Shown: positions 41,833 through 63,989, counted from the first letter of the stretch. The stretch is DNA of 64,000 nucleotides from Desulfosudaceae bacterium (GCA_963674745.2 CAXXDV010000003.1:1888001-1952000); one strand, 5' to 3'. Numbers and translations: made by a program. Notes: a model not told the origin generated them from the letters alone.

Positions 41833-42954
41833 TCAGCCTGCCTGCCGTTCAGCGACCGCTTTTACGATCACACCAAGGTTCACCCCTGACCGCTGTATAA
41901 CCCGGCGGCATCGGGCAAACAACAACCCTGAAGCATTGGCGTTTCTCCCGGCCGATTCCCGCCCCAGCACGATCATTGCCGGGAGCAAGGTTTCCTTTAA
42001 CAACATCAGCTTGTCATGTCGTGACGCAAGGCAATTCATCCACAATATATTGCCCCAGTCTCCGATCGAACGGCCCCGTGATCTGAAGCCCAGCAAAGCC
42101 TGTTCAATACCGGAAATACTCATCTCGGAATGACAAAGCCGTGAACCTCCCGGAGGCTGAAAACAGAACATCCTGCCGAGCAGAAAAAAAGCATAGGACA
42201 ATGGTTTCTCCTGTTGAAACAAAAGAGCCCTGTCGTCCAGGCTTTTCCAGAATCCCGCGTCCCTGCCCCTGACAATCAAAAAAAAATCGACCAGCCAGAC
42301 CAGTTTTGAAAATGAATGCTTGATCATATGATGGGCCATATAGATTAAATGGGTAAATTCGTCGGGCACCCGCACAAGAGAAAACTCTTCACCCCAGGGG
42401 AGGGATTGGTTAAATATCTGTCGCTGATGCACAGGAAACAAGGCCTGCCTGCTTTTAATGCGCGATGTATGCATCAAACTGGTGTGCACATCGATCCGGA
42501 CATCATCTTTGTGAAACATCTGGGGGAACCGATGATCTGTTTTATAGCCGTTTTGTTTTAAAACTTCTTTCAGGCCCGACAAATCTTCTTTGCGGACCAG
42601 GAGATCAATGTCCTCCATGGGTCGTAGACCCGGGTCTGCATAAACGGTATCAAGTAAAGCCGCGCCTTTGAGCAGCACCACAGATATGTTTTCTGAGGCA
42701 AGAAGAGACTCAAGGATTTTAAGGTGCTCCCTTCTGAGGGTGTTCATCGCAAGCGTGGAATAATAGGCCTGTTCCAGAAAATGAAAGACGTCAGCAGGAA
42801 TGCCGTCCTGATTCGCCATCAAGCGATAGGCCAACCCCTGGAGCTGTTGTTGCGATAAAAACCGGGTAAACCCGTCCCAGGACTCGGGTGGCCTTGCGGG
42901 TTGATGCAGTAAAAGAGACAGGAGATAGTTCTGAAAACGTAAATCAGACATCAT
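41833..42954 (-). CDS. nucleotidyltransferase family protein (NTP_transf_5-like)
   Basis: LKGAAL and RPMEDIDLLV (DxD) motifs. Confidence 0.88.
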   Translation of the reverse strand: MMSDLRFQNYLLSLLLHQPARPPESWDGFTRFLSQQQLQGLAYRLMANQDGIPADVFHFLEQAYYSTLAMNTLRREHLKILESLLASENISVVLLKGAALLDTVYADPGLRPMEDIDLLVRKEDLSGLKEVLKQNGYKTDHRFPQMFHKDDVRIDVHTSLMHTSRIKSRQALFPVHQRQIFNQSLPWGEEFSLVRVPDEFTHLIYMAHHMIKHSFSKLVWLVDFFLIVRGRDAGFWKSLDDRALLFQQEKPLSYAFFLLGRMFCFQPPGGSRLCHSEMSISGIEQALLGFRSRGRSIGDWGNILWMNCLASRHDKLMLLKETLLPAMIVLGRESAGRNANASGLLFARCRRVIQRSGVNLGVIVKAVAERQAG

Positions 42955-43475
42955 CTTACCCGTAATCTTTTCAAGACAGCCAGATATTTGACGATCAACG
43001 ATTTGAAGCGATAGTATTGTGCCCGGAAACGGTTCAAGATAATCGACCTGAGGCTAAGCATGTCGATCGAAATTAACCCTTTATGTCCCGGGCGTTCGAC
43101 AGAAACAACTCTGCCAAGACATTGTGCGGCGTCCAGGGGTAAATCCATCATATCCAGGGCATCACCTTTTGTATGCAGGATATTGTTATCACCGCCGGTG
43201 CCGTTGTTTTGAATTCTCAAAAGCCGGTGCAGCGCCATGGTTCCATTATCACGTGTACAAAGAACAACGTCCCCGGTTTTAAGCATTGCCGGGGGCACTT
43301 TCCGGATGGTGGCGATATCCCCGTCTTTAAGAGCGGGTGTCATACTGTCTCCGGTAACACGGACACGCAGATCTTTTCCGCTGGCCAGCAACGCTGATGC
43401 GAGTTCGCTCGACAGCGGATGGGTCTCGCGCGGATTGCCGGTTTCACAGGCATGATATTCATGTATTGAATTCAT
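42951..43475 (-). CDS. S24/S26-family peptidase (Ser-His type)
   Basis: GDSMTP (Ser), GDVV, HRL (His) and KGD; no TM segment. Confidence 0.85.
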   Translation of the reverse strand: MNSIHEYHACETGNPRETHPLSSELASALLASGKDLRVRVTGDSMTPALKDGDIATIRKVPPAMLKTGDVVLCTRDNGTMALHRLLRIQNNGTGGDNNILHTKGDALDMMDLPLDAAQCLGRVVSVERPGHKGLISIDMLSLRSIILNRFRAQYYRFKSLIVKYLAVLKRLRVR

Positions 43476-44370
43476 TGGCGTTCTCTTGAAAAAAATCCGA
43501 GATCGAAGCATCGGCTCGAAACGTCAACTCATAAGCGGGAATCCGGCTTATCAAGTGGTCACAAAAGGCCATCATGGCGGCTGTTTTTTCTTTATCATAC
43601 CAGGGGATGGATAATACCGGCAACAATCTGCCAATCGTGTCCGAAGCGGAAAGTTCGGCCATCCTGTTCTCCGAGCCCTTGGACAAAAAAGCCATTTGCT
43701 TGAGTTCAACGCCCAGATTGACCGCGTGCCCCCCTTCCCCGGGCCACGGCGTCCCGTGCATTTGAAAGGTATGACCGGTTCTGCGGATGACGATGCGGTC
43801 ATCGCTTAACACCGCTCCAGAATTCAGGCCTGACAGATATCCGGCCAGGGTTGTCTTGCCGGCACCTGATTTTCCCGGGAAAACCCATCCCGAATTGTTT
43901 TGCGCCCATCCTGCCGCATGAACGATGACACCTTCATGATGGGCCAGAAAGTTCATCAGCATGATCTGATCCAGCGGATAGGTGACAGGATTAAGCGCCA
44001 GTGACCGCGTCTGTGTATTAATAATGTCACTGCTGCAGAACACAATGACCCGTCCGGCCTTTAAACAAAGCTGCGCCGTCCAGACCGGTTTTGCGAAAGG
44101 CGGGTATTGATCCGTAACATATAATTCGTCTTGACGAGCATAAACAGACCACGAATCCTGGCTGTCAAAAATTCGCTTGCAGCCCGTTAATTCCGGAGCA
44201 GGGTCTGCGGTCAAAATCACTTCGAGGTGTTCCTGATGGGAGCAGACGCGGTCATTATCGTCTAAGACGAACTGCCGGGAAATGTTTTGCGCCCATGCTT
44301 CTGCCGGCAACTTTAAATGACCGGTATCAACCTTCAGGGCCAGGCCTGCTATTGAAAGGATAAGTTTCAA
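43459..44370 (-). CDS. HPr-kinase-related P-loop kinase
   Basis: VHAAG, GKSGAGKTT, LSDD and GTPW motifs. Confidence 0.8.
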   Translation of the reverse strand: MKLILSIAGLALKVDTGHLKLPAEAWAQNISRQFVLDDNDRVCSHQEHLEVILTADPAPELTGCKRIFDSQDSWSVYARQDELYVTDQYPPFAKPVWTAQLCLKAGRVIVFCSSDIINTQTRSLALNPVTYPLDQIMLMNFLAHHEGVIVHAAGWAQNNSGWVFPGKSGAGKTTLAGYLSGLNSGAVLSDDRIVIRRTGHTFQMHGTPWPGEGGHAVNLGVELKQMAFLSKGSENRMAELSASDTIGRLLPVLSIPWYDKEKTAAMMAFCDHLISRIPAYELTFRADASISDFFQENANEFNT

Positions 44371-63177: not shown

Positions 63178-63191
63178 TGAGTAAACACTCC

Positions 63192-63989
63192 CTATTCTAA
63201 ATCAGCCACAGCCTGCCTGACGATTTCGGCATCGACCTGTTGCGTCTTCTGCATCATCCCCATTAAAAAACAGCGGTCACACACGTTGTTGATCCTCAGC
63301 GGGATACCGTTTGAATATTCAAATATCAACGGCATGGCATCATCCGTGAATATATTCATATCCGCTCCGGCAAGATCCAGCCGATACCGGATATATTGTT
63401 CAACCTGCTGCTGATCCAGCGACGTTAAATGATATTTCATGCTGATCCGTTCTTTCAACGGCTGGAGCATCTCGATCTTACTAAGCAGTGCCGGCTGCCC
63501 TACCATAATCAGCGTCAGCAAAAACCGGTTGTCGGCCTGAAGATTCAGCAACATCCGTAATTCTTCAAGAACGCTTTTTCTGTTGATCACATGCGCCTCG
63601 TCGATGATCAGTACGGCGCCGCCGCCCCGTTCCGCGAAATACTCCAGTTTCAACCGAAGCCTTTCAATAATCAGCGATTTGGAATCGCTTTTCAGGGCCA
63701 CACCGAACTGGAGCAAAACAGCCCGAACAAGGTCTGTGGCGGAAAGCGCCGGATTAGGAATCACCCGCACTTCATATTTACCTTTGGGCAGGTAGGCTGA
63801 CAGGTTCCTGATCACGGTTGTCTTCCCGCAACCGACCTCACCGGTCAGCATGGCCACCCCTTTCCGGTAGTTAATCACATACAGCAAGCGGTTAATGGCT
63901 TCCTGGTGCTGAGGTGATTCAAAAAAAACATCGTAACTGGGGACATTGACAAACGGTGGTTCATGAAAACCCCAGTAATCAAGATACAT
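63192..63989 (-). CDS. ExeA/GspA-like AAA ATPase (EPS/protein-sorting-locus type)
   Basis: MYLDYWGF..PF, TGEVGCGKT, IIDEAH, VGQP and GIPLRIN motifs. Confidence 0.9.
   Translation of the reverse strand: MYLDYWGFHEPPFVNVPSYDVFFESPQHQEAINRLLYVINYRKGVAMLTGEVGCGKTTVIRNLSAYLPKGKYEVRVIPNPALSATDLVRAVLLQFGVALKSDSKSLIIERLRLKLEYFAERGGGAVLIIDEAHVINRKSVLEELRMLLNLQADNRFLLTLIMVGQPALLSKIEMLQPLKERISMKYHLTSLDQQQVEQYIRYRLDLAGADMNIFTDDAMPLIFEYSNGIPLRINNVCDRCFLMGMMQKTQQVDAEIVRQAVADLE

Follow-up and report, generated by a model that had tools for sequence, protein, structure and literature searches.

A peptide-modification cassette and a giant C25 protein are encoded within a Wzx/Wzy-type polysaccharide locus in Desulfobacterales

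The linear polyphosphorylated peptide (LPP) pathway (Popov et al., Nat Commun 2026, PMC13381572) is encoded by LppA, B, K, S, N and D. According to the part of that paper used here, LppS is the leader peptidase, LppK polyphosphorylates a serine, and LPP clusters are found in capsule loci. LPP precursors carry the sequence YxxPxVLxHQxIxFETxxS; the authors did not find their final product or its role. The pathway was described as restricted to Bacillota, and a biofilm role was "tempting to speculate". In the pseudomycoidin system, as described in the part of PMC6993621 used here, PsmK adds one to three phosphates to the C-terminal serine, and PsmN, which needs its DxD motif, is required for the addition of one or two hexoses to the phosphate. 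In this study, we analysed a 64,000-nucleotide stretch of DNA from a Desulfosudaceae bacterium (GCA_963674745.2, CAXXDV010000003.1:1888001-1952000; hereafter the window), which is G000:C3:1888001-1952000 of a 5.5 Mb genome in three contigs. The organism is placed in Desulfobacterales. In the window, a cassette for a peptide that is made on the ribosome and modified after translation (RiPP) and the gene for a giant protein with a C25 peptidase domain are located within genes for exopolysaccharide (EPS) export.

We compared the window cassette with these systems, taking the properties of the LPP and lasso-peptide systems from the same parts of the papers. Among known systems LPP is the nearest, and the window cassette has four parts in common with it. 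As in LPP, a SpI-like (archaeal-type S26) peptidase is encoded near a discrete RiPP recognition element (RRE; PqqD), the core cluster includes genes for a kinase of HprK-like type and for an NTP transferase, the leader has a YxxPx[V/L] motif, and the genes are embedded in a polysaccharide locus. An initial annotation of the window, made from its sequence alone, had overlooked the precursor gene, the HprK-like kinase and this published pathway, which already covers four parts of the cassette. In contrast to LPP, the window contains a radical SAM (rSAM)/SPASM enzyme and a giant C25 protein coupled to the cassette. Because this rSAM/SPASM enzyme would modify the core, the cassette would depart from the linearity of LPP. 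Furthermore, only YxxPx[LV] and one Glu of the LPP leader are common to both, and the window family continues with ..EEVLAVGCK. The window precursor is Cys-rich and ends in Gly-Ser, whereas LPP has FETxxS and a variable tail. The MsbA-like exporter of LPP is not found in the window locus: there was no ABC_membrane protein among the open reading frames (ORFs) scanned over 87 kb around it. Finally, the carriers are Desulfobacterales and many other phyla, although LPP is described as confined to Bacillota. We conclude that the cassette is a variant of the LPP/phospho-RiPP kind in a new context, with an rSAM enzyme, a Cys-rich core and a C25 giant.

The Ser-ended precursor, the HprK-like kinase and the NTP transferase with its DxD motif kept resemble the tailoring systems of paeninodin and pseudomycoidin (PadeK/PsmK and PsmN). 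However, a lasso cyclase and a B2 peptidase are absent, the leader peptidase is S26-like, and an rSAM enzyme takes the place of the macrolactam synthetase. The combination of a PqqD-family RRE, a SPASM maturase and a short Cys-containing precursor is also found in sactipeptides, ranthipeptides and SynChlorMet (ScmD/E/F), and the best NCBIfam matches of the window proteins include ScmE, ScmD and sactipeptide maturases, although every score falls far short of its family cut-off (ScmE, for example, 108 bits against 400). In contrast, the kinase, the S26 peptidase, the nucleotidyltransferase, the C25 giant and the EPS context do not belong to those systems. A literature search found no publication on the combination of rSAM, PqqD, HprK and nucleotidyltransferase or of C25 and PqqD; for rSAM and PqqD together with exopolysaccharide and Wzc it yielded unrelated genome papers only, and for PF14907 a single preprint, also unrelated. 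The terms "radical SAM" and "C25" do not occur in the text of PMC13381572, although its supplements might list such clusters.

We then asked how often the EPS export genes, the C25 gene and the cassette occur together. For this analysis, 401 genomes were sampled evenly across the order (174 genera) and the rSAM gene was used as the marker of the cassette (E ≤ 1e-60). It was found in 47 genomes from 32 genera. A Peptidase_C25 gene was present in 105 of the 401 genomes, namely in 35 of the 47 rSAM-positive and 70 of the 354 rSAM-negative genomes. An ortholog of the Wzy-like membrane protein was present in 30 of the 47 and 35 of the 354, respectively. The odds ratios are 11.8 for C25 and 16 for the Wzy-like gene; because the sampled genomes are related and not independent, these ratios and the Fisher p-values overstate the significance. 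The genes are also physically close. In 17 genomes rSAM and the Wzy-like gene lie on one contig, within 36 kb of each other in 16 and 199 kb apart in one. In 20 of the 47 genomes (114 Poly_export matches in all), Poly_export and rSAM share a contig and are at most 25 kb apart, as compared with a rough estimate of about 2.5% for random placement. This Poly_export neighbour is mostly the long form (ORFs of 724-1010 aa). Moreover, we compared 50 rSAM-match regions with the window proteins by tblastn, covering 13 kb upstream and 7 kb downstream as far as the contigs permitted. A C25 match was found in 23 regions, 19 of which have it in the same orientation as PqqD-rSAM and as the immediate upstream neighbour. 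When coordinates were compared by hand, at least 27 of 52 rSAM matches shared a contig with a C25 match no more than 15 kb away. The initial annotation had proposed that EPS export, C25 and the cassette form one linked system, and these data support it. The cassette does not occur mostly apart from C25 or EPS genes, because 42 of the 47 rSAM-positive genomes carry C25 or the Wzy-like gene, usually adjacent where contigs permit. Since the gene families recur together in other genomes, the arrangement is beyond chance. Thus, the linkage of EPS export, the C25 giant and the peptide cassette is real.

The position of the cassette was examined by comparing what follows the Wzy-like gene in 32 genomes scored as rSAM-negative, about 19 of which extend for 3 kb or more past this gene. 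Moving upstream from it, where the contigs reach, one meets Wzc and then the long Wza. A homolog of the PF14907 nucleotidyltransferase follows the Wzy-like gene directly in 13 of these 32 further loci. Thus, the window block of CohU, giant protein, PqqD, rSAM, precursor, kinase and S26-like peptidase separates the Wzy-like gene from the PF14907 gene, whereas these two adjoin each other directly in other genomes. Five of the 32 loci contain divergent cassettes with two rSAM genes. Because the rSAM-negative class therefore includes divergent cassettes, the two-by-two tables understate the link. The sister species G002 shows synteny in the flanking genes (51-84% identity), and there the same slot is occupied by another cassette variant, which consists of an ABC exporter, a nucleotidyltransferase, an rSAM enzyme, an S26 peptidase, a Gly/Ser/Cys-rich ORF, a kinase and a second rSAM enzyme. 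Neither the giant gene nor CohU is in the G002 slot. This variant lies at about 12300-20000 of locus L145 (G002:C5:43000-62999), and its candidate precursor (17109-17384, minus strand) has an E-Y-E-S-P-Q-L leader and is rich in Gly, Ser and Cys but is not Ser-terminated.

Beyond the order, a pattern scan with the rSAM alignment, with one genome per species, gave 74 named loci (73 non-duplicate). A C25 match is present within 16 of the 73. The metagenome-assembled genomes (MAGs) that hold them carry seven phylum labels in all: Anaerolineae/Chloroflexota, Nitrospirota, Acidobacteriota/Aminicenantes, Verrucomicrobiota, Actinomycetes, Omnitrophota and Planctomycetota. In MAGs with these seven labels, too, a C25 giant is encoded directly upstream of PqqD-rSAM. 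Matches to Wza, Wzc or Wzy were found in 13 of the named loci. For example, an Omnitrophota chromosome (L077) has, on one strand, the order wza - PqqD - rSAM - kinase - S26/nucleotidyltransferase - wzc - wzy.

To describe the locus architectures, genes were called and clustered across the extended window and 124 other loci. In L052, L054 and L056, which belong to the same order, the cassette directly follows PIG-L, DegT, WecA-like, ATPase and HD-GYP genes, and there is no giant gene; in the window, the counterparts of these genes precede the export genes. In L097 and L105, from other lineages, a WbqC-PIG-L-DegT module is joined to the cassette. A third layout is a glycosyltransferase-rich locus with an MsbA-like exporter, rSAM, S26 and nucleotidyltransferase, and in G042, G120 and G314 a giant C25 gene is downstream of it. 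Several single ORFs of 536-707 aa match two cassette enzymes and are seen across other phyla: S26 and nucleotidyltransferase in L073, L077 and L124, and HprK and rSAM in L089, L094, L098, L099, L114, L118 and L129. These are apparently gene fusions and, if so, the fused enzymes would act in one pathway. By tblastn, the core (rSAM plus kinase or S26) is present in 87 of 122 non-duplicate loci. Among these 87, C25 is found in 36 and an ABC transporter in 25, and none has both, whereas L120, which is under the score threshold, has both. This exclusivity may reflect two cassette clades with different output routes. We also observed a protein cluster of about 350 aa (c12) without a Pfam or NCBIfam match in giant-type loci (L018, L034, L038, L040, L047 and L053). 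Its gene either has the kinase and S26-like peptidase genes on its two sides or comes right behind rSAM and the precursor (L018 and L053), and it is absent from the window.

The features of the window locus are given in Table 1. In agreement with the initial annotation, the ORFs form an unbroken series of 12 minus-strand genes that occupies 63989 to 41833, and 10 nt separate the giant gene from the PqqD start. The TAA stop codon of the giant gene is at 46003-46005, followed by the 10 nt AGAAGGATTG and the PqqD ATG at 45992. PqqD is probably translationally coupled to the giant gene. There are 4-nt overlaps at PqqD/rSAM, S26/nucleotidyltransferase and Wzc/Wzy. The gap between the Wzy-like and CohU genes is 468 nt, and that between CohU and the giant gene is 167 nt. 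Inspection of the sequence beyond the window, which the initial annotation had recommended, revealed about 23 kb of further glycan genes upstream on the same strand. These encode an HD-GYP protein, a WecA-like Glycos_transf_4 protein, a DegT aminotransferase, a PIG-L deacetylase, a WbqC-like protein, at least eight glycosyltransferases, a GDP-mannose dehydratase, methyltransferases and a Wzx-type flippase (Polysacc_synt_3, E 5e-77). The flippase and two methyltransferases form its upstream end at about C3:1,974,750, beyond which are an enoyl-CoA hydratase gene and then a plus-strand chemoreceptor gene. One locus therefore contains the set of the Wzx/Wzy pathway (Poly_export with SLBB, Wzc, Polysacc_synt_3, Glycos_transf_4 and at least eight glycosyltransferases). 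Because the same-strand glycan genes continue upstream, the window shows the 3' half of a single polysaccharide locus of the Wzx/Wzy type that spans about 45 kb.

Table 1. Features of the polysaccharide, surface-protein and peptide locus (positions counted from the first letter of the window)
Feature	Position	Strand	Basis
P-loop ATPase, ExeA/PEP-CTERM-associated type	63192..63989	minus	AAA_22, E 5e-22
Long-form Wza, 716 aa	61027..63177	minus	Pfam/NCBIfam: N-terminal FG-GAP x5, Poly_export, SLBB
Wzc-type chain-length regulator/tyrosine autokinase	58697..60973	minus	GNVR, AAA_31 (P-loop)
Wzy_C-family (O-antigen-ligase/polymerase-like) membrane protein	57342..58700	minus	Wzy_C, TIGR03097
CohU, secreted, 597 aa	55080..56873	minus	signal peptide, choice-of-anchor U, E 1e-24
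Giant protein, secreted, 2969 aa	46003..54912	minus	DUF11, SdrD_B x5, CarboxypepD_reg, dockerin-like, C-terminal C25
Dockerin-like module, giant residues 2309-2366	47815..47988	minus	two Ca-loop-like motifs
Peptidase_C25 domain, PorU-like, giant residues 2624-2967	46012..47043	minus	PF01364, E 2e-70
PqqD-type RiPP recognition element	45675..45992	minus	PF05402, E 1e-12
Radical SAM/SPASM peptide maturase	44539..45678	minus	Radical_SAM, E 2.5e-26
Precursor peptide, 63 aa	44385..44576	minus	Y-E-K-P-D-V leader, G-C-K junction
HprK-related kinase (LppK/PadeK-like)	43459..44370	minus	TIGR04355, E 1e-7, below cut-off
Soluble S24/S26 peptidase, archaeal/SipW type	42951..43511	minus	Peptidase_S24, E 6e-8
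PF14907 nucleotidyltransferase (PsmN/LppN-like)	41833..42954	minus	PF14907, E 2e-40

The candidate precursor has a predicted leader with a lasso/LPP-like motif, two further Cys beyond the G-C-K junction, and a C-terminal Gly-Ser. With a profile built from first-round matches, ORFs of the same family were found in 58 of the 125 loci. Among 56 non-duplicate members, the motif [YWF]xxPx[LVIM] is present in 54, C-K in 51 and exactly three Cys in 44; the last Cys is most commonly five residues from the end. Ser is the C-terminal residue in 49 (Gly-Ser in 39) and Thr in three. The catalytic motifs of the modifying enzymes are conserved as well. All best NCBIfam matches of the rSAM protein are far under their cut-offs. 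Its CxxxCxxC motif and seven C-terminal Cys do not vary among 22 homologs. Walker A of the kinase (G166-x-S-x-x-G-K-x-T) is kept in 70 homologs, and D115-x-D117 of the PF14907 enzyme in 32. The S26-like peptidase scores 47.4 bits on TIGR02228 (cut-off, 51.85), and its Ser56 (G-x-S-M-x-P), His95-Arg96 and G116-D117 are kept in 46 homologs. This enzyme is probably an LppS-like leader peptidase.

The giant protein is predicted to be a Sec-secreted beta-sandwich array with an intact PorU-like domain. Its N-terminus is a conserved beta-sandwich array, for which residues 30-700 were folded with a pLDDT of 72.6. This 671-residue model matched only multi-domain beta-sandwich structures (MG/Ig-type arrays) with TM ≤ 0.25, and no enzyme fold was among the structural matches. 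The best NCBIfam model of the C25 domain is NF033707 PorU (191 bits; cut-off, 420). As in PorU and the gingipains, the catalytic His-Cys dyad is present: in an alignment with RgpB (gingipain R, 1cvr), the catalytic His211 and Cys244 match a His and a Cys of the C25 domain. In contrast to PorU, the domain is found at the very C-terminal end of an adhesin-like protein of 2969 aa, and the host does not belong to Bacteroidota. The genome has a second, much smaller C25 gene (C1:646274-647401, 665-aa ORF, 113 bits).

CohU has, in addition to the choice-of-anchor U domain, a weak cohesin-like domain (E 0.004, 17.8 bits; cut-off, 24.1), Asp-rich repeats and a short poly-Gly C-terminal tail with CFI. 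When its N-terminal domain was compared with Atlas, a cohesin cluster was found only at rank 6 (score 0.90), and PDB sequence searches with the single sequence or a 3-sequence profile found no cohesin. The Dockerin_1 match of the giant is 22.5 bits (cut-off, 22.9), and the paired dockerin-like motif occurs in this giant only, among the giants scanned. With both domain matches under their Pfam cut-offs, a cohesin-dockerin pairing of CohU with the giant would be a mere possibility. CohU homologs were found only in L018, where the homolog bears a full CFI_box_CTERM domain, and in L031. Ten of the 11 choice-of-anchor U proteins in the genome end with poly-Gly, C-F-[I/L/F] and 5-8 residues, a shortened "CFI box" that lacks the transmembrane portion present in NF041770. 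These tails are encoded at window 55080-55130, at C3:1468688, 900818, 2578508, 1573246, 70484, 1539352 and 675222, and at C1:723652 and C1:2506352. The tail may be a short C-terminal processing tag. No publication on the term "CFI-box-CTERM" was found in the literature search.

PEP-CTERM/exosortase systems are EPS-associated protein-sorting systems with an exosortase (EpsH/XrtA) and PEP-CTERM substrates. The export genes of the window locus resemble them in the ExeA-like ATPase, the Wza-type exporter, the tyrosine kinase/chain-length determinant, the stp-type glycosyltransferases and the O-antigen-ligase-like protein, and the best NCBIfam matches of these genes are XrtA-associated models. However, every match to an XrtA model is below the equivalog cut-off (TIGR03015, the best model of the ATPase, TIGR03027 and TIGR03018: 210, 120 and 137 bits against 324.5, 180 and 230.65), and there is no exosortase or PEP-CTERM gene in the locus. 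No exosortase was found within the 87 kb examined around it. The sole exosortase-like match in the genome (PF09721, 21.7 bits; cut-off, 25.7) is at C3:751733, about 1.18 Mb away. Involvement of an exosortase was therefore rejected, and the system is distinct from PEP-CTERM/exosortase, as had been annotated initially. At C3:751431-752014, one PEP-CTERM match (23 bits, over the cut-off) lies about 230 nt before the exosortase-like match, and the two may form a dedicated mini sorting pair far from the locus.

From its domains, the long-form Wza would be an outer-membrane polysaccharide export protein. Wzc exceeds the cut-off of TIGR01007 (161.7 bits against 108). The Wzy-like protein scores 30.5 bits on Wzy_C (cut-off, 31.7) and 33 bits on TIGR03097, and the Pfam family Wzy_C takes in both polymerases and ligases. 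Its orthologs form a single-copy family with 48-67% identity in 65 of the 401 genomes. We infer that a polymerase would not normally keep such identity over many families of the order. Homologs of the ATPase directly precede the cassette in L052, L054, L055 and L056.

A sigma-54-like -24/-12 element with one mismatch (TGGTACAAAAATTGCA, 57035..57050, minus strand) is present in the 468-nt gap before the CohU gene. This element is weak when taken alone because two matches were found in the window as compared with 2.29 expected. Within 500 nt upstream of giant genes, such elements were found in 4 of 38 cases (about 0.7 expected), and that of L043 is one base apart from the window element. There was no sigma-54 activator gene within about 79 kb. 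Since the counts in promoter and terminator scans were equal to those in shuffled sequences, the scans are uninformative on operon structure.

Downstream, past 41833, come unrelated genes, of which those bordering the locus (Na/Ca exchanger, START protein and ParA/HTH protein) are plus-strand genes. In addition, the minus strand at window 124-11469 encodes a cluster for glycogen metabolism, with a branching enzyme, a glycogen synthase, a phosphorylase that contains DUF3417, and a fusion of amylase and debranching enzyme of 1429 aa.

The sequence data establish the genes with their catalytic motifs, a family of precursors, and a linkage that recurs both in physical position and across whole genomes. 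On this basis, and with slightly better than even confidence, we propose that a block of CohU, giant and peptide genes has been inserted into the EPS locus of about 45 kb and that the peptide product is a component of the matrix or cell surface and not a free antibiotic. The matrix role is inferred, and all chemical steps that follow are modelled on homologs. PqqD would bind the 63-aa precursor via the YxxPxV leader, and the SPASM rSAM enzyme would cross-link the three Cys, probably as thioethers. The HprK-like kinase would phosphorylate the conserved C-terminal Ser. The S26-like peptidase would cut the leader near the G-C-K junction; the site may be between A-V-G and C, which fits the -3/-1 rule, or, by analogy with LPP, four residues earlier. 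The PF14907 enzyme would add a sugar or a further group to the phosphate, and the product would work with the polysaccharide and the giant surface protein. Because PF14907 and the Wzy_C-family protein are regular neighbours and the latter is unusually conserved, it is suggested that the peptide meets the glycan pathway at this point. The initial annotation had likewise placed the peptide in a linked system distinct from exosortase, which stands; the functions that it suggested for the peptide (linker, anchor or protease regulator) are still suggestions. A more specific version, which we regard as rather improbable, is that the PF14907 enzyme and the Wzy_C-family "ligase" join the phospho-Ser to an undecaprenyl-linked glycan that is exported via Wzc and the long Wza. 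In C25 loci, the peptide would then be a handle by which a PorU-like transpeptidase fixes the giant or other proteins to the matrix.

Other explanations of the locus were considered. The cassette might make a free antimicrobial or signalling peptide (sacti-/ranthipeptide-like, with phospho-Ser) that is found in EPS loci through biofilm co-regulation or tolerance of insertions. This would fit the patchy rSAM gene (32 of 174 genera), the different variants that sister species hold in the same slot, as conflict systems do, and the ABC exporters in 25 of the 87 core loci. In addition, in the part of PMC13381572 used here, Popov et al. see the patchiness of LPP as typical of conflict genes. However, the cassette lies inside, not beside, the conserved array from Wza-Wzc-Wzy to the nucleotidyltransferase, no exporter or immunity-like gene was found within 87 kb of the window locus, the linkage holds over seven phylum labels, and the module of WbqC, PIG-L, DegT and WecA-like genes adjoins cassettes in distant lineages (L052, L056, L097 and L105). 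A free peptide is thus unlikely in our judgement. The close tie between cassette and protease gives another explanation, in which the peptide serves the giant, whether as a ligand resembling a cofactor, by inhibiting or activating C25, or by being its substrate or acceptor, and the EPS genes are mere neighbours. The 10-nt spacing, the C25 gene immediately upstream of the cassette in 19 of 50 loci and also under seven other phylum labels, the intact catalytic His and Cys, and the separation of C25 from ABC exporters among the core loci are all in line with it. We nevertheless find this explanation doubtful, at about the level of the glycan-linked peptide above: 12 of the 47 rSAM-positive genomes have no C25 match, many cassettes (L052, L054, L056, L077 and others) lack C25 yet have EPS genes, the association across genomes is stronger with the Wzy-like gene than with C25, and the giant has a signal peptide whereas no exit route was seen for the peptide.

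The third explanation concerns sorting of surface proteins, analogous to exosortase or PorU, in which a C25 transpeptidase removes tails of poly-Gly and CF(I/L), such as that of CohU, and attaches the proteins to glycan or peptide. The C25 domain is nearest to PorU sortase models, the CohU gene adjoins the giant gene in a genome where these tails are common, and choice-of-anchor U is found in 73 of 105 C25-positive as compared with 134 of 296 C25-negative genomes. Nevertheless, those 134 genomes carry the domain without C25, G002 has seven choice-of-anchor U genes and no C25 match, and CohU and a giant occur together in only 3 of 125 gene-called loci (the window, L018 and L031). C25 as a sortase for poly-Gly-CFI tails was rejected because the phylogenetic profile gave no support, and we consider the explanation as a whole very unlikely. 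Least probable of all is that EPS export, surface proteins and the RiPP cluster are adjacent by chance. The 468- and 167-nt gaps would allow this, and internal signals are neither backed nor ruled out by the scans for promoters and terminators; the frequencies of co-occurrence and adjacency, the two-enzyme ORFs and the conserved slot in the sister species speak against it.

Several observations weigh against the proposed matrix role itself. The window locus has no peptide exporter within 87 kb, and cassettes without C25 often have an ABC exporter. A patchy distribution is also expected of a mobile antibiotic cluster, and rSAM was not found at E ≤ 1e-30 in two genomes of the same genus (71% and 99% complete). 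Five of the 47 rSAM-positive genomes have neither C25 nor the Wzy-like gene. Conversely, 35 Wzy-like-positive genomes lack rSAM at E ≤ 1e-60, so that the export module exists without this cassette type, and no cassette-like genes follow the Wzy-like gene in six well-flanked loci of the 32 compared. The relatedness of the sampled genomes belongs here as well. The 468- and 167-nt gaps, with their promoter- and terminator-like matches, could separate transcription units. Moreover, in the part of the LPP paper used here, the phosphorylated Ser is core residue 3, not the C-terminus, and no activity of LppN was seen (PMC13381572).

RiPPs are usually read as antibiotics or signals. In this locus, a conserved operon for polysaccharide export incorporates an LPP-like phosphopeptide pathway to which an rSAM enzyme is added, and many lineages couple this LPP-like pathway to a giant PorU-like protease-adhesin. 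Because the same polysaccharide context recurs independently in Desulfobacterales and at least seven other phylum labels, the speculation on a biofilm role of LPP gains concrete support. If the peptide were joined to polysaccharide, a ribosomal peptide would be a structural building block of the extracellular matrix, and a new route for anchoring proteins to glycan would exist outside Bacteroidota. If the peptide is part of the matrix, this would be a new role for a RiPP and a new biofilm component in anaerobic sediment bacteria.

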